The notes: generated by a model from the sequence alone, not told the origin. Positions 5,709 to 60,052 are shown, counted from the stretch's first letter. The stretch is 64,000 nt of DNA from an uncultured Lachnoanaerobaculum sp. (GCA_938015485.1 CALLVU010000128.1:4427-68426); one strand, 5' to 3'. Numbers and translations: made by a program.

Positions 5709-5999
5709 ATGGCAGGACAGATTAGGATTACACCTGAACAGATGCATGCAAGAGCAGGTGAGTTTAGAAATGCGGAGTCGGAGTACTCAAGAGTAATTAG
5801 TACTATGAGAAATCTGATAAACACATTGCAGGGTGAATGGGAAGGTGCGGCAAGTGAGAGCTTTGCAGCACAGTTTGAGTCATTACAGCCTTCATTCAAT
5901 CAAATGGATCAGTTGATACTGGACATAGCAAAGCAGTGTGATGACGTGGCAGATGCAACTCAGGCATTAGATGAAGAGATTGCAAGCAAGTTTAAGTAG
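5709..5999 (+). CDS. esxA: WXG100 family type VII secretion target EsxA
   Basis: 96 aa. MAGQIRITPEQM...LQGEWEGAASESFAAQFE is a canonical WXG100 helix-WxG-helix. Strong RBS and promoter. Confidence 0.95.
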   Translation: MAGQIRITPEQMHARAGEFRNAESEYSRVISTMRNLINTLQGEWEGAASESFAAQFESLQPSFNQMDQLILDIAKQCDDVADATQALDEEIASKFK

Positions 6000-6011
6000 A
6001 AGTTAGTTTTG

Positions 6012-6083
6012 TAGCCCATGTATTTATGTTATCGATAAGTTATTATTTAGTTTATTAAGATATATGAATACATGGGCATTTTT
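6012..6083 (+). repeat. Conserved intergenic hairpin element, copy 3 (terminator-like, after esxA)
   Basis: Identical to copy 2. Stem 6014..6024 / 6067..6077, then a T-run. Confidence 0.6.
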
Positions 6084-6100
6084 GAATTTAAAGGTAAAAA

Positions 6101-6400
6101 ATGCAAAATAGAAAACTGAGTAAGAATGAACGATGAAGTAGGGTTGAAGGATGGATATAGTATTAACAAATGCATTGCTATAATATTAGCCGGAAGGATA
6201 ATGATGGTGACAAAAAACAAGATCACAATCCGGAGGGAATACAAGCTTGTACATTTGAAAGAGATGATCAGATATATATCATTTAGAGGAACGCCAAGAA
6301 AATCATAGCGAGATTATGGAGGCTAAGTTTGTAGCCGGTATGTATGGAGGAAAGTGATACGGCATGCAGATGTGATGATATAACTGATAATATTTAATAG
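6101..6400 (+). pseudogene. Mosaic scar of a deleted TM-protein/lipase/helper module
   Basis: 6101..6131 matches the start of 2010..2756. About 6190..6300 matches 3031..3135 of the lipase-fold gene (about 88% by eye). About 6305..6375 matches 4452..4525. About 6378..6400 matches 5444..5465. The track ORF 6126..6308 is a chimera of these fragments. Confidence 0.8.
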
Positions 6401-6422
6401 AATGATAATTTTAGGAGGGCAT

Positions 6423-8531
6423 ATGAACAAAATTTTAAAGTCGACAAAGTTGATAGTGGTAGCTTTAAGCATATGTATGCTGTGTAGCGGTATAGTTCTC
6501 GGATCTATTTCCAATACAGAGATTCCACAAAATATTAATACAGCTAATAATTATCAGACTATTGAAAATGACAAGTCATATAAAGTGGTGTCCACTAAAG
6601 ATATAGCTGTAGTGAACTTGGATGACGGAGTAAAGGTAAAAGGAAAGAAAGCATACTATGCCGGGAAGATAATAACACTTCCGAATGAACATTTTAACAT
6701 GACGGGATTGGATGATGCCAGAAACGGATTAAAATCAGGAAAGTATGGTGCATACATAGTAATACCTGCCACATTTTCAAAAGCGGTGGAGAGTATAAAC
6801 AATGATCCACAAAAAGCCACAATAAAATACACGGTTAATGCGGATAATAATGACGCATCACTTGCAAGTATTGTGAATGATATAAATTCATTTGCATCTG
6901 TTGTAAGTGAAAATATAACATTTATATATGTGAGTGCAATATTGGAAGAGTATCACAGAGCTCAGGACAATACAAAGGTAATACTAAAAAATGACAGTAT
7001 AGACCTTGACAATATAAACAGCATATCGCCTGAAAGTTTATTGGGCAGATATGAGAATGTTAAAGAAAATAATATAGATTTTAAGTCTACAGATATAGAT
7101 TTGGATAAATATAATATAGAAAATGAAAATATAGTTGATTCGTTTTCAAGGGAACTAAGGGAAGCCAAGGAAGAAAATGAAAGAAACTTTGATAATATAA
7201 AGAGAGAAGGGGAAGAAGTAAGAACAGGTGCAGACAGGTTTGGGAGATTTTTTGAAAGCCTTACACCACTGAAGGATGCTTCGGGAAACAGTGTATACTC
7301 AAACGGATTTACAAATATTGAAAGACTTTTAAGCGGTCATAATGACAGGTTAAATTCGTCTTTTAATATGTTTGATGAGATATTTAAGAGACAGAATGAA
7401 CAGACAAAGAATGTCTTGCAGGAAGAGGCGAATGTGCATCTTGCATCAGAGTCAAACGCACTACGTAGTCGAATTAATCTCGAAATAGGCGGTATCATAG
7501 AAAACAGCTACAGAAGAATATTTGAAGAGGAGTATCAAAATATACAAAGAAGCGGTATGGAGCTTATGAGGAGATATATAGAAAATGTGATAAGGCATGA
7601 ACTTGTTATGGATACAGAGGAGAGAGGTTATCTTCTGTCAAGGCTTGCTACAGCTTCAGATGCAATCATGCGTGAAGATATAAATACGGCAACAATGTCC
7701 AATGCGGTAAGTAGAATGCGTGATAATATTGTGCCTACATTTAATGTAACGATGAATCCTTTTGTCGGGTCAAATACATACTTGACAGGACTCAATACGG
7801 CAGCTGATGCGGATTTTAATACAATAAAAACGACATTAAATTTCCCGATAGAGGAACTGAATGAAGTTTTTAGGAATGATATAGAAGATGTTATAGATAA
7901 CTCGGTATCAAGTCTGGCAGCAGAGGTAAATGATAAATCAGGGGAGTTTAACGAGGTGCAAAGAAGATATATGGATTTGCTGGATGACTACAATCCATAT
8001 GCACATCTTAATGACAGCTATATGTCAAGAGCTGCAAATGAACTGGAGAGAAGTGCAAACATCGCATTTTCAGAGTTTAGAGATAAACAGACGGACGATG
8101 AGAAGCAAGTCTATGACATCATGAGATTAAGCGATGAGAATATCAGACTGTATGATGAAAGTATAGGTAAAGCTTACGACACTACAATGAAGAACGTAGT
8201 AGACGTGGTAAACGCACTTAGAAGTAAAAAGGAAGACACAAAGTCAAAGAACAGTGAGCTTATGAGTGATTTTTCAGATAAGCTTTCATATACAAGACTT
8301 GGAAGTATAGGAAATAAAGATGCGTATGACTTTATATCAAGTCCTGTAGAGATATCACCTAATGACGACAGCAATATAGAAGTACAAAGTGACTATATGT
8401 ACAATATGCCGTCAAAGAAGAAAAGCATCTTAGATAATAAATATACAAAAGGTGCTATATCTGTCGGAACGATAAGCTTTATTATATTGATGGCACTGGT
8501 GATAAATTCTTTATTTAAAAAGTTGGTTTAA
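6423..8531 (+). CDS. esaA: Type VII secretion protein EsaA (YueB/YhgE-Pip-like)
   Basis: ATG at 6423 follows GGAGGG. N-terminal TM, KYGAYIVIPATFSKAVESINNDPQKATIKYTVNADNN (EsaA/YhgE signature as I recall), long helical ectodomain, C-terminal TM. Sits directly after esxA. Confidence 0.8.
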   Translation: MNKILKSTKLIVVALSICMLCSGIVLGSISNTEIPQNINTANNYQTIENDKSYKVVSTKDIAVVNLDDGVKVKGKKAYYAGKIITLPNEHFNMTGLDDARNGLKSGKYGAYIVIPATFSKAVESINNDPQKATIKYTVNADNNDASLASIVNDINSFASVVSENITFIYVSAILEEYHRAQDNTKVILKNDSIDLDNINSISPESLLGRYENVKENNIDFKSTDIDLDKYNIENENIVDSFSRELREAKEENERNFDNIKREGEEVRTGADRFGRFFESLTPLKDASGNSVYSNGFTNIERLLSGHNDRLNSSFNMFDEIFKRQNEQTKNVLQEEANVHLASESNALRSRINLEIGGIIENSYRRIFEEEYQNIQRSGMELMRRYIENVIRHELVMDTEERGYLLSRLATASDAIMREDINTATMSNAVSRMRDNIVPTFNVTMNPFVGSNTYLTGLNTAADADFNTIKTTLNFPIEELNEVFRNDIEDVIDNSVSSLAAEVNDKSGEFNEVQRRYMDLLDDYNPYAHLNDSYMSRAANELERSANIAFSEFRDKQTDDEKQVYDIMRLSDENIRLYDESIGKAYDTTMKNVVDVVNALRSKKEDTKSKNSELMSDFSDKLSYTRLGSIGNKDAYDFISSPVEISPNDDSNIEVQSDYMYNMPSKKKSILDNKYTKGAISVGTISFIILMALVINSLFKKLV

Positions 8532-36468: not shown

Positions 36469-37089
36469 ATGTCCGGATTAGCTAATATTGTGGTGTATGA
36501 AGAGAACAAGGGGATTTTAAAGAACAACGGATTTTATAATGACGGGAGGTGGCTATAAAAGCGGGGCTTGCGCACAGGAAGAGTGTCTCTGCAGGCAGAG
36601 TACTTTGTATGAATCTATAAGGTCACCCAAGGCTTCCGGGATGTATAAGTATAATTTTAAATTTGGAACGGCATTTGATTCCGATTATATGCTTCTGTCA
36701 CCTGTGGTAGATGTATTTAGAAATAACCTTATACCACATCCGTTATGACTATTCCTGCACCGAATCTGTTTGACAGGGCATATGGACAGTCAAAAGAGGC
36801 CCTTGATAGGGTGATGAAGAAAAGGATTAGACAATATCTGTACTGTGCTGCAAGATTCGGATACAGAACAATTACATTGGGAGCATGGGGTTGCGGAGTA
36901 TTCGGACATGACGCCCACAATGTTGCAGGATATTTTAAGGAATTGCTCGTTGAAGAAAAAATGTGGAAGCTGTTTGATAAAATTATATTTGCTGTTTATG
37001 GAAGAGGAAACAGCGAGTATAACTATAAAATGTTTAAAGAGGTATTGGGAGAAGTCAGTAAAAGTAGCACACATGTGGACGCATTATGA
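36469..37089 (+). pseudogene. Bacterial-type PARG-like macrodomain gene (TIGR02452/DUF2263), internally deleted and frameshifted
   Basis: Three frames: MSGLANIVVYEENKGILKNNGFY.. / GGGYKSGACAQEECLCRQSTLY (GGG-x6-8-QEE signature) / TIPAPN..ITLGAWGCGVFGHD. Frame changes near 36539 and 36745. Confidence 0.7.
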
Positions 37090-38298: not shown

Positions 38299-38396
38299 TC
38301 TATTTAATGGATAAGTGGCTGTTGCCGGATAGATATTTTATCTTTTTGGTGGCGGCTTTTTTATGTTCTTTGTCAAATACTGGGGTGGGAGGTAAA

Positions 38397-38905
38397 ATGA
38401 AATCAAAGCATGATGTAATAGTAATAAGACCGGGTTTAGTATATTTGTTTTTCAGTTTTATGCCTATAGTTTTAGGAATTACATATTTTTGGGTATTAGG
38501 CAAAGCTTTACCGTCAGATAATCCGGAGGTGGACAAGATGGCAAGGTGGATATTGCTATTATTTTTTTTGACTGTCGGATTAGTATCGGGATTATATGCG
38601 TTGCTTACCAAGATAAAAATTGACAATGAGAAAATAGAAATAACAAGGTTTCCTCTAAAAAAAAAGAATATTTTTGGTTTGATATAACTACTGCAAAGAT
38701 TATAAATGAGGCATTGGCTTACCCATGTGTGATATATACAGCAGAAAAAAGAATAGCAAAAGTACCAAGGGCATATATAGGCTATGAAAAGCTGCTAAAT
38801 GAGCTAAGCAAAAGAAAAATTATTGAGGAAGATGATTTGTACCTGGAAGCCAGAGGAATGTTGGCATTTGATAAGCTAAAACTTAGAGATCTCTTTAGAA
38901 GGTAG
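38397..38905 (+). pseudogene. Frameshifted paralogue of membrane protein 40532..41029
   Basis: MKSKHDVIVIRPG... aligns to MKTKDSKIVIRPG.... The frame is lost at the A9 run 38657..38665; adding one A restores FPLKKKEYFWFDITTAKIINEALAYPCVIY (compare FPFKRSEYLWSEISHAKIIGEASEYPCEIY). Confidence 0.75.
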
Positions 38906-39029: not shown

Positions 39030-39536
39030 TTGTATTTGGGTGATGATACAGAAAGATTTATTTTGGGAGAGTCCGGAGCAAATCCTATTATATGCTTTGG
39101 AATAAATCCAAGTACAGCTAATGATGAAAAGGATGATCCAACTATTTCAAAAATAAGAAAAATTGCATCAGAAAATAATTGTGACGGTTGGATAATGTTA
39201 AATCTTTATCCGCAAAGAGCGACAAATCCTAATGATATGCATAAAAAAGCTGATAATGATTTGAAGATAAAAAACTATGAAGTTATAAGAAGTGTTTTTA
39301 ATATATATCCTAATGCTTTAACCTTGGCTTCTTGGGGGAACGCCATAGAGAAAAGAAAATATTTGAAAGATTGCTTAAAGGAAATTCTAGCTATTGACCC
39401 GGATAGGAAGTGGGTATGCCGTGGTAAACTAACAGTGAGGGGGAATCCAAGGCATCAATTATATGTACCCAATAATACCAAATTACAAGATTTATATTTT
39501 AGCTTAGAGGGAAAAGTTTTATGTAGCAAAGATTGA
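39030..39536 (+). CDS. DUF1643 domain protein
   Basis: 168 codons from TTG. IICFGINPSTANDEKDDPTISKI...GWIMLNLYPQRATNP fits DUF1643. An in-frame ATG at 38955 is separated from the ORF by a TGA at 38982..38984. Confidence 0.6.
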   Translation: MYLGDDTERFILGESGANPIICFGINPSTANDEKDDPTISKIRKIASENNCDGWIMLNLYPQRATNPNDMHKKADNDLKIKNYEVIRSVFNIYPNALTLASWGNAIEKRKYLKDCLKEILAIDPDRKWVCRGKLTVRGNPRHQLYVPNNTKLQDLYFSLEGKVLCSKD

Positions 39537-39645: not shown

Positions 39646-39699
39646 GTGACTGACTATAAAAATATTCTAAATAAATCTGAATATGATTTTATAAATAAA
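39646..39699 (+). pseudogene. Scar of the 5' end of a 41446-type nucleotidyltransferase gene
   Basis: GGAGGAGCATAGTGACTGACTATAAAAATATTCTAAATAAATCTGAATATGATTTTATAAATAAA matches GGAGGAGTCATGACTGACTATAAAGAGATTTTAAACAAACCCGAATATGATTTTATAAATAAA at 41434..41497. Confidence 0.75.
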
Positions 39700-39715
39700 G
39701 AGGAGGCGTTAAATA

Positions 39716-40030
39716 ATATCAAAGAATAAAAAACTTGTTATAAGCTTACTTGTAATAGTTGTACTGATGGCAATAGTGCCTTTATTTATGCTTAAGAATG
39801 CCGAATTTGGCGGTTCTGATGATGCCGGAAGTGAAGTGGTTTCAGAAATATAGGGCGGAGAATATGAGCCGTAGTTTAATCCGGTTATAGAAACCGTCTT
39901 AGGAAAGGAACTTCCGGGAGAATTTGAAAGTCTGCTTTTTTGTGTACAGACAGGTATAGGTGTAGGCGTCTTCGCATTCTTTATGGGAAGATTTGTAGAA
40001 AGAAAAAAACAGGAAGATAAGAAAAAATGA
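39716..40030 (+). pseudogene. cbiN: cbiN (cobalt ECF-transporter small subunit) pseudogene
   Basis: (I)SKNKKLVISLLVIVVLMAIVPLFMLKNAEFGGSDDAGSEVVSEI*GGEYEP*FNPVIETVLGKELPGEFESLLFCVQTGIGVGVFAFFMG. ATA sits at the start position 9 nt after AGGAGG. Two in-frame TAGs, one where CbiN has the conserved W. No cbiM/Q/O nearby. Confidence 0.75.
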
Positions 40031-40531
40031 TGAAAGGCTGCTGCTTTGTAAGATGGATTGCAAGGCGGCAGCTTTTAAGTAACGGAATAAGCCGGTATGG
40101 ATTTTTTTCAAATTTTTGTTTTAAATTTTTTATGTTAATGAATGTGAAAGAGGAGAATCGGCATATTTTGAGATTGTGTAAGTATATGTATGCAAGAGAA
40201 GATATGCAGTACACATAGAGTTTTAAGAAGATAATTTAAAATTATATTGCAGTTTATTAAAAAATCACTTTGTTCAATAAAGCTGATAATTTTCAGCAAA
40301 ATCGTGATGAATATTAATAAAAGATTTGATAAAATATAAGTATCAAGGCAGTATTATTAAAATATAATTTACATTATATAGCCTTGTCGGTTGTTGTAAT
40401 AAAGAGGTCAATGCTATAAAGTATGTTGGCGGATTTATACAACTAAGCTTTAGCTTTGAGCCGAGTGGCCGAATAAAACTGAAAGTATGTGGATTTTACT
40501 GCTAAAAAGCGTTTAATGAAGGGGGCGGAAG

Positions 40532-41029
40532 ATGAAAACGAAGGATAGTAAAATAGTGATAAGACCGGGTAAAAAATATCTGATTTCAATATTTTTATGT
40601 ATATACATTACTCTTATGATGATTTGGGTTTTATGTAAAGTAGGCCCATCAGAAATTCTGGAGACGAAGGGGGCGGGTGTGTTGCCGATGCTATTATTAA
40701 GTTCAAGTCTCGGAATATATTTTTTATTATTTGTTTTATTTACAAAAACAGAAGTAAGCGATAAAAAGATATTAATAAATCAGTTTCCGTTTAAAAGAAG
40801 TGAGTATTTATGGAGTGAGATAAGCCACGCAAAGATTATAGGTGAAGCCTCTGAATATCCGTGTGAAATCTATTCAGGAGGAAAGAGAATATTAAAAATA
40901 CCGAGAAATTATTTTGGATATGAGAGGTTGTTTTATGAATTGGATAAAAGAAATATTCTCCGGAAAGATGATTTTTATGTAGCTGCCAAGGTAGCGTTGG
41001 AGATAGATAAAAGAAGACGGCAAGATTAG
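40532..41029 (+). CDS. Two-TM membrane protein with cytoplasmic C-terminal domain (unknown function)
   Basis: 165 aa with RBS GGGGGCGGAAG. Two hydrophobic helices. Intact paralogue of 38397..38905. Confidence 0.55.
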   Translation: MKTKDSKIVIRPGKKYLISIFLCIYITLMMIWVLCKVGPSEILETKGAGVLPMLLLSSSLGIYFLLFVLFTKTEVSDKKILINQFPFKRSEYLWSEISHAKIIGEASEYPCEIYSGGKRILKIPRNYFGYERLFYELDKRNILRKDDFYVAAKVALEIDKRRRQD

Positions 41030-41445
41030 TACAAGTAAAGCATGTGATTATTGTATAGGGGTATAAGAAAGTAAGAATTAGAGGTGGTGGAATGCGTTCG
41101 AAAACGGTTCGATAAGAGAAGAGCTGGGTATTATTATGCCAATATTGCACGAAAATGGAATGATTACAATAATTATAATATTATGTTAGATAGTTCGACT
41201 CCTGTAATTGACGGATGTGCTACGGTACTGAAAGGTTTGCTTTCTTATTAGATGCTCTGTAGAAGGGCACTATGTCTGAAAAAATAGGTGTGTGTAAAAT
41301 CAATATAGCATTAAGGAAAGTCAGAAATGGGTTATTCATTTTTGACTTTTTTAATACAATAATCAGCTTTGCATTATAGCTTATATGCTTTAGAATAAAT
41401 ATAGAAATAAAAAGATAAGGCTTAGAGATATTTTCAGGAGGAGTC

Positions 41446-42468
41446 ATGACTGACTATAAAGAGATTTTAAACAAACCCGAATATGATTTTATAAATAAAA
41501 ATGAGCATCTCGGAAAGCATGTGATTTTGCTTGGGCTTGCGGGAAGCTATGCATATGGGACAAATATAGAAAGCAGCGATATAGATATAAGAGGAATTAC
41601 ACTTAATCAAAAATCGGATCTTATAGGACTTACACAGTTTGAACAGTATGTGGATGATAATACCGATACAGTTATCTATGCATTCAATAAAATGGTGAAT
41701 TTACTTTTGAGTTGTAATCCGAATACAATAGAGTTGCTTGGACTTGCACCGGATAATTATCTCTATCTTAATGATATCGGAAAAATGCTTCTTGATAATA
41801 AACGATTGTTTTTATCAAAAAGAGCTATTCAGTCATTTGGGGGCTATGCGGATGCGCAACTTAGAAGATTACAGAATGCACTTGCCAGAGACACATTTCC
41901 ACAAAGTGAAAGGGAACAGCATATTTTTAATTCTGTAAAGAATGCAATGTACAGTTTTAACTCAAGTTATAAGAACTTTGAAAACGGAAGTCTGGAAATT
42001 TTTATAGATAATGCGGTTAATCCGGAGCTTGAAACTGAGATATTTGTCAATGCCAAATTGAGTCACTATCCGTTAAGAGATTATGCAAGTATGTGGAATA
42101 CAATGTCAAACGTTGTAAAAGACTATGATAAAATCGGCAAAAGAAATAAAAAGAAAGATGATCTTCATTTAAATAAGCACGCCATGCATCTTATGAGATT
42201 ATTTATGATGGCTATTGATATACTGGAAAAGGGAGAAATCAATACATACAGAGAAAAAGAACATGATTTATTGATGGATATCCGCTTTGGAAAGTATCAA
42301 ACAGATGAGGGAACTTTTTCGGACAGCTTCTATGATATGATGAGAGAGTATGAAAAGAAACTGCATTACGCTTCCAAGCATACGCAATTACCGGATGAAC
42401 CGGATTTTAAAAGTGTGCAGGAATTGGTTATGACAATAAATGAAAGGGTGATTCGTGATGAGATATGA
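41446..42468 (+). CDS. Pol-beta-superfamily nucleotidyltransferase (COG3541/PF10127-like), copy A
   Basis: 340 aa with RBS AGGAGG. LGLAGSYAYGTNIESSDIDIRG is a G[SG]-x(9-13)-DxD NTase motif. Confidence 0.65.
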   Translation: MTDYKEILNKPEYDFINKNEHLGKHVILLGLAGSYAYGTNIESSDIDIRGITLNQKSDLIGLTQFEQYVDDNTDTVIYAFNKMVNLLLSCNPNTIELLGLAPDNYLYLNDIGKMLLDNKRLFLSKRAIQSFGGYADAQLRRLQNALARDTFPQSEREQHIFNSVKNAMYSFNSSYKNFENGSLEIFIDNAVNPELETEIFVNAKLSHYPLRDYASMWNTMSNVVKDYDKIGKRNKKKDDLHLNKHAMHLMRLFMMAIDILEKGEINTYREKEHDLLMDIRFGKYQTDEGTFSDSFYDMMREYEKKLHYASKHTQLPDEPDFKSVQELVMTINERVIRDEI

Positions 42469-43246
42469 TAATTATAAAGAGAATATAGAAGAGCTGATTC
42501 TTTATAAAATAAGAGAAATAGAGGAAAAAGAGAATATAAAAGTGCTACACGCTATTGAATCGGGAAGTAGAGCTTGGGGCTTTGCCTCGCCTGACAGCGA
42601 TTATGATGTAAGGTTTATCTATGTTCGTAATAAAAACTTTTATTTATCCCTTAGAGAGAACAAGGACTTTATCGATTGGGAATTAAATGAGGTGCTTGAT
42701 ATCAACGGATGGGATTTTAAAAAGGCATTAAAGCACTTTCATAAATCAAATGCTACATTATTTGAGTGGAGCAATTCTCCTATTGTGTATTATACAACGG
42801 ATGTTTGGAAGGAGCTTTACGACAGAACGGCATGCAAATACTTTGCATGTAAATCTGCACTTTATCATTACTACGGTACGGCAAAAAAGAACTACTACGA
42901 TTACCTATGTGATAACATGGTAAAATATAAAAAGTATTTTTACGTGCTGAGACCTATTCTTGCCTGTAAATGGATTGAAGAAAAGAAATGCCCACCGCCG
43001 GTACTTTTTGATGAATTGGTTAATACCGTTCTTGAGGAAGATATGAAGACAGCGGTAGAGGATTTGCTTGCAAAGAAGGTAAAAATGTCCGAATCAGAAA
43101 AAGGCCCAAGGGTTGAAGAGATAAATAATTATATAGAAGAGAAGTTGGAATATTATAAGTCGACCTTGGAAACAATGGAGGATGACAGGAATACCGACTG
43201 GGATGCGCTGGAAGAGGAGTTTAGAGGGGTGGTAGACAGTATTTAG
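42455..43246 (+). CDS. Pol-beta-superfamily nucleotidyltransferase (COG3541/PF10127-like), copy B
   Basis: 263 aa. ESGSRAWGFASPDSDYDVRFIY. Overlaps the previous gene by 14 nt. Confidence 0.65.
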   Translation: MMRYDNYKENIEELILYKIREIEEKENIKVLHAIESGSRAWGFASPDSDYDVRFIYVRNKNFYLSLRENKDFIDWELNEVLDINGWDFKKALKHFHKSNATLFEWSNSPIVYYTTDVWKELYDRTACKYFACKSALYHYYGTAKKNYYDYLCDNMVKYKKYFYVLRPILACKWIEEKKCPPPVLFDELVNTVLEEDMKTAVEDLLAKKVKMSESEKGPRVEEINNYIEEKLEYYKSTLETMEDDRNTDWDALEEEFRGVVDSI

Positions 43247-43253
43247 TTCGTAA

Positions 43254-44102
43254 ATGTCGGCATTTTCTGATATAATTACTATGTATGTTTATTGGGAGGT
43301 GATATTCATTAACGAGCTAAAAATCAGGCAATTATGTTATAACATGAATATTGGTTCTACAGAACCTAAATTTGCAATTTTAGAAGATGGAACACAGGTT
43401 GTTACAAAATTATATAATGGCCCGGAAGGAAATCTGGTGCTCTTTAATGAGTATTTATGCTATCGTTTGGCTATTTTATTGGATATTCCGATGCCGAGAG
43501 CAGGTGTTTGCATTTTAGACAGTTCTTCAGAAATACAAGATGAAGAACTTGCTACTCCGCTTAATTATGGAAAAGCTTTTTTCTCGGAATATATGCCAAA
43601 GGTTACAAAACTACTTCCTACCATTATTAGTAAGATGAGAAATAAAGAGGATTTTGTAAAGATTCTACTATTTGATCATGTTATATTTAATACAGATAGA
43701 AATCCCGGAAATCTTTTAGTACGATTTTGTAAGGGCGATATTTCACTAAAAGTAATAGACCATACACATGTTTTTATTAATCAAACATTTTGGGATGCAA
43801 GTTGCTTGAAACGAGCAATGGAAGAAAATGATTTATTAGACACGAAGGTATTGGAGTATAATTCCTACTTGTATGAAATGTTTTTTGAAAATTTTTCTGT
43901 TAGAAAGGAGATGTTGGAAAAGGAAAGTTCAGTCTTTAAAAGCAAGATTAATCATGATATAATAACAGAACTCATCGACATTATTCCGGAAGAATGGAGA
44001 CCGAAACAGAAAGATATTGATGAACTTATAAATTATATTCTATATAGAGTCGATAATTTGGATGTGATAATATCCACAATTTTGACATATAATAATAGAT
44101 AG
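43254..44102 (+). CDS. HipA-family (PI3/4-kinase-fold) kinase-like protein
   Basis: LLFDHVIFNTDRNPGNLLV and LKVIDHTHVF match the HipA-family catalytic and Mg loops. N-terminal IGSTEPKFAILEDGTQVVTKLYNGPEGNLVLFNEYLCYRLA. The start is uncertain: the ATGs at 43254 and 43281 lack an RBS, and GGGAGGTG lies at about 43294. Confidence 0.6.
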   Translation: MSAFSDIITMYVYWEVIFINELKIRQLCYNMNIGSTEPKFAILEDGTQVVTKLYNGPEGNLVLFNEYLCYRLAILLDIPMPRAGVCILDSSSEIQDEELATPLNYGKAFFSEYMPKVTKLLPTIISKMRNKEDFVKILLFDHVIFNTDRNPGNLLVRFCKGDISLKVIDHTHVFINQTFWDASCLKRAMEENDLLDTKVLEYNSYLYEMFFENFSVRKEMLEKESSVFKSKINHDIITELIDIIPEEWRPKQKDIDELINYILYRVDNLDVIISTILTYNNR

Positions 44103-44118
44103 GGAAGGAGGAAATATA

Positions 44119-44862
44119 ATGTACAACATTGAATATGCAGCATTGAATTATTATCATTCACCTATATCAGATGAGTGCTTGTGTATAGGTGTGTTATTTC
44201 ACAATGTAACAACAGGACAACGTGATTTCAAATATATCTCCAATTTCCAACGGTTTCATGCTTTTGATGATGAAGCGGATATTGATTTTGTTAAACTCTA
44301 TTTACGAGGTATTAAGGATGAAGTTGAAACTTCTGTCTTTAATTTTAACAAAGAGTTTGAGCTTGCTTCATATGTCAAAGTGTATGCGAATGAATTTAGA
44401 TTCTCATCAGTTAGAACTCTTACAGTTAATGAAAATGAGAACTATGTTGAGGATTTATCGAAAGTATATTTGAAATATGATTTAGCAAGATCACAGAGAT
44501 TAAACGGCAATGAGGAAAAGAAATTAATTCGTAGAGTGCTTGAATCAAATAATCTTGAATATACTACTCAAAAAGTTGATGGTCCATATAGCGATGAAAT
44601 TTCCTTTGATTATCAAGTTGGAAATGTATGTATTAAGATGTTTTCATTTAAAGGGAAAAACTTAAAGCGAGTTATCGGAAGTGCAAGACAATGGTCTTTT
44701 GTAGCTGACGAGTTGGGGGAACAAAAGAGAGTGCTGTTCATATATGATTCAGATTATGAAGATATGGGCAATCTCGATATAATTATTAAGATACTATCAA
44801 AGAATGCAAAGGTTCTGAAATTGGATGATGGAATGGATTATATTTTGAATCAGTGTTTGTAG
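44119..44862 (+). CDS. DUF3037-like protein
   Basis: 247 aa with RBS GGAAGGAGG. N-terminal EYAALNYYHSPISDECLCIGVLF resembles the DUF3037 consensus (..lrY.....gE..NiGVvl) as I recall. Confidence 0.5.
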   Translation: MYNIEYAALNYYHSPISDECLCIGVLFHNVTTGQRDFKYISNFQRFHAFDDEADIDFVKLYLRGIKDEVETSVFNFNKEFELASYVKVYANEFRFSSVRTLTVNENENYVEDLSKVYLKYDLARSQRLNGNEEKKLIRRVLESNNLEYTTQKVDGPYSDEISFDYQVGNVCIKMFSFKGKNLKRVIGSARQWSFVADELGEQKRVLFIYDSDYEDMGNLDIIIKILSKNAKVLKLDDGMDYILNQCL

Positions 44863-44960
44863 AGTCAAAGCCGTAGATGATGTGTCTGCGGCTTTATTAC
44901 TTATATTCCTGAAAACCTCGCAAATGGGGCAATACAGGGCAAAAAGGAGTAAATAAAACT

Positions 44961-46291: not shown

Positions 46292-46489
46292 TTACTTTTT
46301 CTCTAATGCCAAACCTATCAAACGATCTGTATAATCTGCCATAAATAAAGGAATATTCAGCACATCGTCAAAAATCCAAGTCTTACCTACCTGTCGTACA
46401 CCTTTTAGTATTAAAGGTTTTCTATATGGAGAATTCTTCCAGTTTAACAGATTTTTCAAAATAAACCGTTCCATAGTTTTCCTTTTCAC
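46292..46489 (-). pseudogene. Remnant of an AAA+ ATPase (AAA_14/DUF4143-type) gene
   Basis: MERFILKNLLNWKNSPYRKPLILKGVRQVGKTW then an abrupt unrelated C-terminal tail. Only 65 codons versus about 400 in full-length family members. Confidence 0.55.
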
Positions 46490-59859: not shown

Positions 59860-59932
59860 GGGATCTTAGCTCAGCTGGGAGAGCATCTGCCTTACAAGCA
59901 GAGGGTCACAGGTTCGAGCCCTGTAGGTCCCA
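59860..59932 (+). tRNA. tRNA-Val (anticodon TAC)
   Basis: Hand-folded cloverleaf. Acceptor GGGATCT/AGGTCCC, D arm GCTC..GAGC, anticodon stem TCTGC/GCAGA with loop CTTACAA, T arm ACAGG TTCGAGC CCTGT. No encoded CCA. Confidence 0.85.
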
Positions 59933-59963
59933 CTTTTTCATGTAAAGCATGAATTTAATATAT

Positions 59964-60037
59964 GGCGATGTAGCTCAGTTGGCTAGAGCATACGGTTCAT
60001 ACCCGTAGTGTCGAGAGTTCGAATCTCCCCATCGCTA
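59964..60037 (+). tRNA. tRNA-Met (anticodon CAT, elongator type)
   Basis: Acceptor GGCGATG/CATCGCT, anticodon stem TACGG/CCGTA with loop TTCATAC, T loop TTCGAAT. Resembles Bacillus elongator tRNA-Met rather than the initiator or tRNA-Ile2 (judged from memory). Confidence 0.75.
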
Positions 60038-60052
60038 TTTTTTCCATTTTGT

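Follow-up and report, generated by a model that had tools for sequence, protein, structure and literature searches.

A stretch of 64,000 nucleotides (nt) from an uncultured Lachnoanaerobaculum sp., here called the window, contains four consecutive plus-strand genes (Table 1). They encode two nucleotidyltransferases of the RlaP family (NTase-1 and NTase-2), a HipA_2-type kinase and a DUF3037-like partner protein. A preliminary description of this DNA took the four genes for one cassette, probably an operon, that was reminiscent of toxin-antitoxin (TA) or anti-phage systems. The evidence argues otherwise. The region very probably consists of two independent two-gene modules, the RlaP pair (module A, 41446-43246) and the kinase/DUF3037 pair (module B, 43241-44905), which lie side by side within a hypervariable defence/TA slot on a Lachnospiraceae chromosome. 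The TA or anti-phage idea is backed for the kinase pair by experiments on its relatives, but not for the four genes as one module.

The region is real but largely ordinary, and both modules are members of known families. What is new is an undescribed architecture of paired RlaP genes, together with a neatly delimited hotspot. A false lead can also be removed: nothing found here points to a new system of four components that joins a kinase with nucleotidyltransferases.

The two pairs rarely occur together

Co-occurrence of the four genes had been chosen beforehand as a test of the four-gene reading, and the outcome goes almost entirely against it. On the kinase side, one genome per species was scanned, yielding 38 loci (L013-L050) with kinases at 29-98% identity. 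At all 36 of these loci that have enough sequence, the gene immediately after the kinase encodes the DUF3037-like partner, which bears out an earlier remark that the pair is widely conserved. An RlaP homologue is near the kinase at just one of the 31 loci with at least 1.8 kb of upstream sequence (tblastn, plus phmmer on all open reading frames, ORFs). This single locus (L021) comes from a metagenome-assembled genome (MAG) of a Lachnoanaerobaculum sp. and has 96-97% DNA identity to the window.

The NTase side gives the same picture. A metagenome scan found 80 loci with an NTase-1 homologue at 68-99% identity. NTase-2 is adjacent to NTase-1 at 62 of the 73 assessable loci, and a kinase is near the NTase pair at 1 of 60 (L059). 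The order of the four genes is intact at L059, and the phosphatase and membrane-protein genes that lie downstream in the window are present as well, which places L059 at the chromosomal site of the window. Both L021 and L059 are closely related to the window and occupy this one site, and they therefore do not count as independent occurrences of the four genes. Among the 31 kinase-side and 60 NTase-side loci, no recurrent RlaP-RlaP-kinase-DUF3037 set was found in independent genomes.

The state of L021 is itself informative. It has the only four-gene arrangement among the species-representative genomes (5884-7246), and there the RlaP genes are intact while the kinase and its partner are pseudogenes. 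A 238-bp deletion (window 43267-43504) removes the -10 of the promoter-like element described below along with the 5' end of the kinase gene, and the DUF3037 gene carries an internal stop.

The RlaP pair occurs in at least 20 distinct flank contexts. When the neighbours of NTase-1 were clustered for 87 loci, the commonest were NTase-2 (64 loci) and then DUF1643 (18 loci). All 18 DUF1643 loci belong to the lineage of Lachnospiraceae closest to the window, with NTase-1 identity of at least 86%. A third conserved partner was sought, and beyond NTase-2 no neighbour family recurs outside that nearest lineage. The RlaP pair is a standalone module that is common in Lachnospiraceae.

A slot that exchanges modules

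The second line of evidence comes from syntenic strains. The variable slot is flanked by a glycerol-dehydrogenase-like iron-containing alcohol dehydrogenase (Fe-ADH) gene and a low-molecular-weight (LMW) phosphatase gene. Three contigs (L007-L009, NTase-1 93% identical) share two syntenic blocks with the window: one runs from the Fe-ADH gene across DUF6560 and DUF1643 to the end of the RlaP pair, and the other starts at the phosphatase. The interval between the blocks holds, in place of the kinase pair, a helix-turn-helix (HTH) gene and an M78-peptidase/Fic gene (CapH/CapP-like regulators). Comparison of this slot (window 43240-44930) among L007-L009, L052-L073 and L086-L087 indicates that it is hypervariable between close strains. 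Other occupants are a RelB and ParE pair, a Schlafen/AlbA_2 protein, an HTH-Fic protein (PADLOC PDC-S04, E = 1.3e-38; SoFic, 1.1e-28) and a BnzB-like protein of 799 amino acids (aa) (2.8e-44). Upstream of the slot, some strains have a PDC-S68 helicase-nuclease (E = 0). At L001-L003 and L013, the kinase pair stands beside the phosphatase gene and there is no RlaP gene. Since different modules occupy the same slot of syntenic strains, it is a defence/TA hotspot that exchanges self-contained modules. The documented hotspot is compact, and strains of one lineage swap SoFic-like, BnzB-like, RelB/ParE, CapH/CapP-like-Fic and HipA/DUF3037 modules in it.

The edges of the kinase cassette are sharp. 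The blastn match of the window to L001 and L013 is confined to 43241/43243-44905, and synteny with L007/L008 ends at 43239 and resumes at 44931. Close to the upstream edge is a promoter-like element, identified by its conservation in seven aligned cassettes whose upstream flanks differ. The conserved blocks are CTCGTAAAT, the extended -10 TGATATAAT (43268-43276) and GAGGAGGTGATATTCATTAACGAG, and the spacer between the extended -10 and GAGGAGGTGATATTCATTAACGAG varies among the seven. A ribosome-binding site, GGGAGG, follows at 43294-43299 and, like the extended -10, is conserved ahead of the kinase in the seven cassettes. The element is a putative promoter of the kinase pair. A terminator-like hairpin inside the shared cassette closes the kinase/DUF3037 unit, and the cassette looks transcriptionally autonomous. 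With edges, promoter-like element and terminator delimited, it is directly clonable.

The start of the kinase also bears on this layout. With longest-ORF starts, NTase-1 and NTase-2 overlap by 14 nt and gaps of 7 nt and 16 nt follow, exactly as first described. Most kinase homologues, however, are 267 aa long and begin with MIFINE, at the position of window residue V16, so the kinase probably starts at GTG 43299 rather than ATG 43254, giving 267 aa. The DNA upstream of residue 16 (43254-43298) is not conserved as coding and is interrupted by an in-frame stop in L013. The ribosome-binding site lies right against GTG 43299, and ATT 43308, in the same frame and ideally spaced, is an alternative start. 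A start at GTG 43299 means that the 7-nt gap is in fact probably an intergenic region of about 52 nt that bears the promoter-like element. In all, the swapped modules of syntenic strains and the kinase pair's own promoter-like element and terminator speak against a single four-gene unit.

Table 1. Features of the two modules and their surroundings (window coordinates)
Feature	Position	Strand	Evidence
NTase-1, long-form RlaP-family Pol-beta nucleotidyltransferase, 340 aa	41446-42468	+	PF10127, phrog_388
NTase-2, canonical RlaP nucleotidyltransferase, 263 aa	42455-43246	+	PF10127, phrog_14344
HipA_2-type Ser/Thr kinase, presumed toxin/effector; longest ORF 282 aa, probable protein 267 aa	43254-44102	+	PF20613, PDC-M66A, phrog_3162
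DUF3037-like partner, presumed antitoxin/regulator, 247 aa	44119-44862	+	PF11236, PDC-M66B, phrog_7610
Kinase/DUF3037 cassette	43241-44905	+	88-94% nucleotide identity to copies with different upstream flanks
Promoter-like element: TCGTAA, 17-nt spacer, extended -10 TGaTATAAT (43268-43276)	43248-43276	+	Conservation in 7 cassettes
Intrinsic-terminator-like hairpin, 13-bp stem	44867-44895	+	Inside shared cassette, closes kinase/DUF3037 unit
Remnant of NTase-1 5' end	39647-39705	+	86% identity to first 59 nt of the NTase-1 coding sequence; 1800 nt upstream of NTase-1

The kinase/DUF3037 pair

The domains first proposed for all four proteins were recovered in hidden Markov model (HMM) searches (PF10127 twice, PF20613 and PF11236), and none of the four reaches any curated NCBIfam cut-off. 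The kinase matches HipA_2/PF20613 (4.1e-17, 62.7 bits, cut-off 27), PADLOC PDC-M66A (5.2e-9) and phrog_3162 (1.2e-35). HipA_C stays below its cut-off. K52, D141/H142, D148-R-N-x-G-N153 and I-D169-H170 are invariant in all 16 aligned sequences, and the loop of the window kinase reads D148-R-N-P-G-N153. The DRN.GN loop and IDH motif noticed at the outset are among these residues. The kinase has 211 homologues in the protein collection. Among 1.84 billion representatives, its profile finds 658 clusters (50% identity) at E<=1e-3 and 325 at E<=1e-10. Against the Protein Data Bank (PDB), the profile gave only a marginal match to a PI4K-type catalytic loop (E 0.016).

The partner matches DUF3037/PF11236 (2.2e-5, 25.1 bits, cut-off 22.6), PADLOC PDC-M66B (1.6e-6, residues 1-204) and phrog_7610 (3.5e-21). 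A beta-rich N-terminal DUF3037 domain (residues 6-114) is followed by a C-terminal alpha/beta domain of about 100 aa. An AlphaFold2 model built with 31 homologues has a predicted local distance difference test score (pLDDT) of 87.8 and a predicted template-modelling score (pTM) of 0.83. Foldseek matched this model to nothing in the PDB at E<=1e-3. The top matches are weak: the PspGI restriction endonuclease (E 4e-3, template-modelling (TM) score 0.31) and, for the last ~90 residues, XPF/Mus81 nuclease domains (TM ~0.3). Besides DUF3037 the partner has no Pfam match at E<=1, and no DUF1829 domain was detected in its C-terminal region. The model is compatible with a restriction-endonuclease-like C-terminal domain, which is a lead rather than an established feature. 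Such a domain would presumably be analogous to the DUF1829 domain of the defence protein DS-6B.

The preliminary description called the kinase/DUF3037 pair functionally unassigned, and this is out of date. DS-6 of Escherichia coli, since renamed HipAD, consists of a kinase and a DUF3037/DUF1829 protein and has been validated as an anti-phage system in the DefensePredictor study; a catalytic mutant of its kinase (D139) loses defence (PMC13092281). For DS-6 that study also gives a structure prediction of the complex, with an interface pTM (ipTM) of 0.76-0.79. Likewise, a HipA-like/DUF3037 pair in the Retron-Sda1 operon defends against phage Bas51, and the retron parts are not needed (PMC12548924). 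In that operon defence is abolished by loss of the kinase gene, and a DUF3037 deletion is toxic, a pattern that indicates a toxin/antitoxin-like relationship (PMC12548924).

How closely does the window pair resemble these systems? The sequences of DS-6A and DS-6B were taken from the tables of PMC13092281 and aligned to the window profiles by hhalign. The kinase profile matches DS-6A with a probability of 94.7% (E 6e-8, ~24% identity), and D139 of DS-6A aligns with D148 of the window kinase, so that the Asp essential in DS-6A is kept. Both systems have two genes in the same order, a HipA_2-type kinase of ~250-280 aa and then a DUF3037 protein. The window kinase and partner also match the PADLOC models PDC-M66A and PDC-M66B; the NTases have no significant match. 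The differences are the low kinase identity and a partner that is barely alignable and has no detectable DUF1829 domain. In addition, the window pair comes from a Gram-positive gut anaerobe. Judged by these likenesses, the window pair is a divergent Firmicute member of the PDC-M66 / DS-6 (HipAD) family.

The Retron-Sda1 pair belongs to the same two families as the window kinase and partner. In contrast to Retron-Sda1, the window has no retron reverse transcriptase or noncoding RNA, and the neighbours of the pair are RlaP genes. HipBA is a further point of reference. The window kinase shares its superfamily, a DRxxxN-type catalytic loop and an IDH/IDF-type Mg-binding Asp, and in both cases the adjacent gene supplies the protein that neutralises the kinase toxin, though for the window pair this is presumed. 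However, the window kinase is much shorter than HipA, and its partner is downstream and an unrelated DUF3037 protein. A classical HipBA type II TA system was considered and rejected: HipA_C reaches 16.4 bits (cut-off 30.5), HipA_N has no match, and the position upstream is taken by an RlaP NTase and not by a HipB-type HTH antitoxin.

Temperate Staphylococcus phages (52A, SAP-26 and PhiSepi-HH1) also carry the kinase, with 28% identity to that of the window. One phage region was examined, that of PhiSepi-HH1 (L133 3992-5503), and a 243-aa gene directly follows its kinase. The two are probably a prophage-borne kinase/DUF3037 pair. The DS-6/HipAD (PDC-M66) family thus reaches gut Lachnospiraceae, related Firmicutes and Staphylococcus prophages, beyond the tested examples.

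Gene content, motifs, modularity, cassette edges and the homology to DS-6A are direct observations; the biochemical and phenotypic steps of each module are what we infer. By analogy with its relatives, the DUF3037 protein of module B would restrain the kinase. Phage infection might then release the kinase, which would phosphorylate an essential host target. The classical target of HipA is an aminoacyl-tRNA synthetase. Growth would arrest and the infection would be aborted.

An alternative is that the window pair is merely a selfish addiction (TA) module or a decaying remnant, without an anti-phage role in its host. We consider this unlikely. It is true that the slot is shared with classical TA pairs such as RelB/ParE, but SoFic-like, BnzB-like and PDC-S68-type defence genes use it too. 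The kinase genes of relatives are often disrupted. At the species level, the kinase is frameshifted, truncated or internally deleted at 7 of the 38 loci (L015, L021, L035, L037, L045, L047 and L050) and the partner is broken at 3 of them (L021, L033 and L047), and errors in MAG assemblies may account for part of this. The disruptions lend slight support to the idea of a toxic kinase. The window copies of the two genes are intact, however, and the kinase has kept all its catalytic residues. Defence has been observed only in distant proteobacterial and Bacteroidota relatives, with 24% kinase identity to DS-6A; nevertheless, two independent studies have found it for this architecture (PMC12548924; PMC13092281), and the family is prophage-borne in Staphylococcus phages.

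The RlaP pair

NTase-2 is a full-length member of the RlaP family (PF10127, 3.3e-84, profile positions 2-247 of 249) and also matches phrog_14344 (3.6e-66). NTase-1 shares the catalytic domain (PF10127, 9e-18, residues 22-144, profile positions 18-142 of 249) and has a full-length match to phrog_388, annotated as nucleotidyltransferase (1e-55). The two are divergent, with 26% identity over 110 residues. The GS..DxD motif was correctly read in both. G33 S34, D45xD47 and D74 of NTase-1 are each kept in at least 97% of 69 aligned sequences, and G37 S38, D49xD51 and D82/D87 of NTase-2 are each kept in at least 97% of 54. The third catalytic Asp of either protein was assigned by position and conservation, not structure. 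A C-terminal helix region of NTase-1 is conserved as well (KRNxKKDxxHLNKHAMHLxRL). Neither NTase matched a chain in a PDB sequence search. The likely start of NTase-2 is ATG 42458, as called in L007, which leaves an overlap of 11 nt with NTase-1.

Homologues of NTase-1 in the protein collection number at least 8000, far more than those of the kinase. Among phages, 583 records contain relatives, including those of mycobacteriophages, Bacillus phages, large enterobacterial myoviruses and one Clostridioides difficile phage. The latter (AR1086-1) has NTase-1 without a neighbouring NTase-2, and NTase-1 stands without NTase-2 at several other loci too. An IMG/VR scan with NTase-1 gave one distant locus on a 504-kb contig, which served only to diversify an alignment.

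What might the pair do? The Pseudomonas enzymes PfRlaP and PaRlaP add one or two nucleoside monophosphates (NMPs) to RNA 3'-OH ends; RlaP favours damaged RNA, and over-trimmed tRNA regains function after ligation (bioRxiv 10.64898/2025.12.29.696909). This preprint is the sole source of RlaP biochemistry cited here. Both window NTases resemble PfRlaP, PaRlaP and T4 NrdC.11 in having three catalytic Asp residues, and the family is common in phages. The characterised enzymes differ in being single genes in RtcB/RtcA operons, whereas the window has two divergent, overlapping paralogues of 340 and 263 aa. Linkage to RNA ligase or RNA-repair genes, from which the family takes its name, is lacking at the window locus: no RNA ligase gene was seen there (stretch examined ~28-48 kb) or beside the pair in syntenic relatives.

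Other contexts of the pair point both ways. RtcB lies about 1.5 kb upstream of it in one context (L010), and Tpt1/KptA is found at three loci. The surroundings at L010-L012 feature RtcB, HicB, a DUF2828 gene (at all three), Tpt1/KptA and restriction-modification or helicase defence genes. In more distant species the pair lies amid housekeeping genes (GH3, GH42, FGGY kinase, TGT/YajC and DegV).

By analogy with the family, RNA 3'-end repair is the best-supported function for the RlaP pair, ahead of a MenT-like toxic or regulatory role. Module A would extend RNA 3'-OH ends, such as those of damaged tRNA, by one or two nucleotides, and its likely role would be RNA repair or protection against ribotoxins. 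The overlapping frames of two divergent NTases with full catalytic triads suggest co-translation and possibly a heteromer. Translational coupling of NTase-1 and NTase-2 is probable, and the two may well act as a heteromer.

Could the pair instead be a TA-like or defence/counter-defence module, in which one paralogue toxically tails the 3' ends of tRNA or other RNA and the other neutralises or regulates it? This has some appeal. The MenT and AbiEii nucleotidyltransferase toxins use a chemistry that is akin to the measured addition of one or two NMPs at RNA 3'-OH ends by RlaP. The standalone, overlapping two-gene layout is patchy across many unrelated chromosomal contexts, the pair sits at the edge of a defence/TA hotspot in the window lineage and at L010-L012, and relatives of NTase-1 abound in phages. 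Still, complete catalytic triads in both paralogues would be unusual for a mere antitoxin, and NTase-1 also occurs alone. The only PADLOC matches are to the short NTase model PDC-S09 and are insignificant (1.3e-3 and 0.046), which is why the NTases were not classed with known defence systems. The published data on RlaP point towards repair, and RtcB or Tpt1 is a neighbour in some relatives. On balance a TA-like or counter-defence pair is improbable.

A more ambitious proposal is that the paralogues form an obligate heteromeric RNA 3'-end tailing enzyme with its own role in phage-host conflict, either the repair of ribotoxin-cut tRNA or action as a MenT-like toxin/regulator pair. We regard this as a long shot. 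If true, it is perhaps the reason that the RlaP pair is kept at the edge of a defence hotspot. In a weaker version, the pair would buffer its host against the changing toxins of the neighbouring slot. No description of the pairing was found in the literature searched, and the paired architecture is worth biochemical attention.

Weighing the two-module reading

Several observations weigh against two autonomous modules with the roles proposed above. Terminator-like sites are absent between NTase-2 and the kinase, and read-through co-transcription from the RlaP genes is therefore possible in this strain. A generic promoter scan missed the promoter-like element, which has a weak -35, and the promoter call draws on conservation and consensus only. 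The Pfam and PADLOC scores of the DUF3037-like partner are modest. Its hhalign match to DS-6B is weak (E 0.009, probability 4.6%), if colinear over the whole length. For module A, the RlaP Pfam model covers just the N-terminal third of NTase-1. Moreover, most of the distant species have housekeeping genes and no RNA ligase around the RlaP pair, and the repair role is therefore argued at the level of the family.

These points do little for the idea that all four genes encode one operon-borne system in which the NTases work with the kinase/DUF3037 pair, for instance as a new TA or defence system: a shared strand, tight spacing, the missing terminator-like site and the intact order on the metagenome contig L059 speak for it, but it is scarcely credible given co-occurrence at 1 of 31 and 1 of 60 loci (both close relatives at the same site), sharp cassette edges with unrelated modules replacing the kinase pair in syntenic strains, the pair's own conserved promoter-like element, the L021 pseudogenes beside intact RlaP genes, and validated relatives of the kinase pair that act as two-gene systems. 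Two juxtaposed modules remain the preferred reading.

Other features of the locus

The DNA upstream of the RlaP pair had been described as a decay zone, and this description is apt. The first DUF6560 gene is frameshifted in the window (38307-38905) and split into ORFs of 126 and 63 aa, whereas the L007 copy is intact (174 aa). The DUF1643 gene (39030-39536) encodes 168 aa, compared with ~192 aa in relatives. Both the split DUF6560 gene and the short DUF1643 gene are consistent with decay. The 59-nt remnant of NTase-1 (Table 1) adds to this. The stretch that separates the remnant from the NTase-1 gene (39700-41425) is missing from the syntenic contigs L007/L008. A second, intact DUF6560 paralogue (40532-41029) lies within this duplication or insertion of ~1.8 kb, which the remnant marks. 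The remnant looks like a recombination scar of module shuffling.

Further upstream, the counterpart of a microbial PARG-like gene (36539-37089) appears broken into ORFs of 69 and 114 aa. The region is ~200 bp shorter than in L007, where the gene encodes 297 aa; the domain (PF10021) was assigned on the L007 protein.

The sole Rfam/ARAGORN matches in the whole window are the adjacent tRNA-Val(TAC) and tRNA-Met(CAT) genes at 59860-60038. Downstream of the slot, between the membrane-protein gene and a second Fe-ADH gene, is a minus-strand ORF of 65 aa (46292-46489) whose sequence includes PLILKGVRQVGKTW. It may resemble the N-terminal Walker-A part of an AAA_14/DUF4143-type ATPase, and is perhaps a truncated remnant of one.

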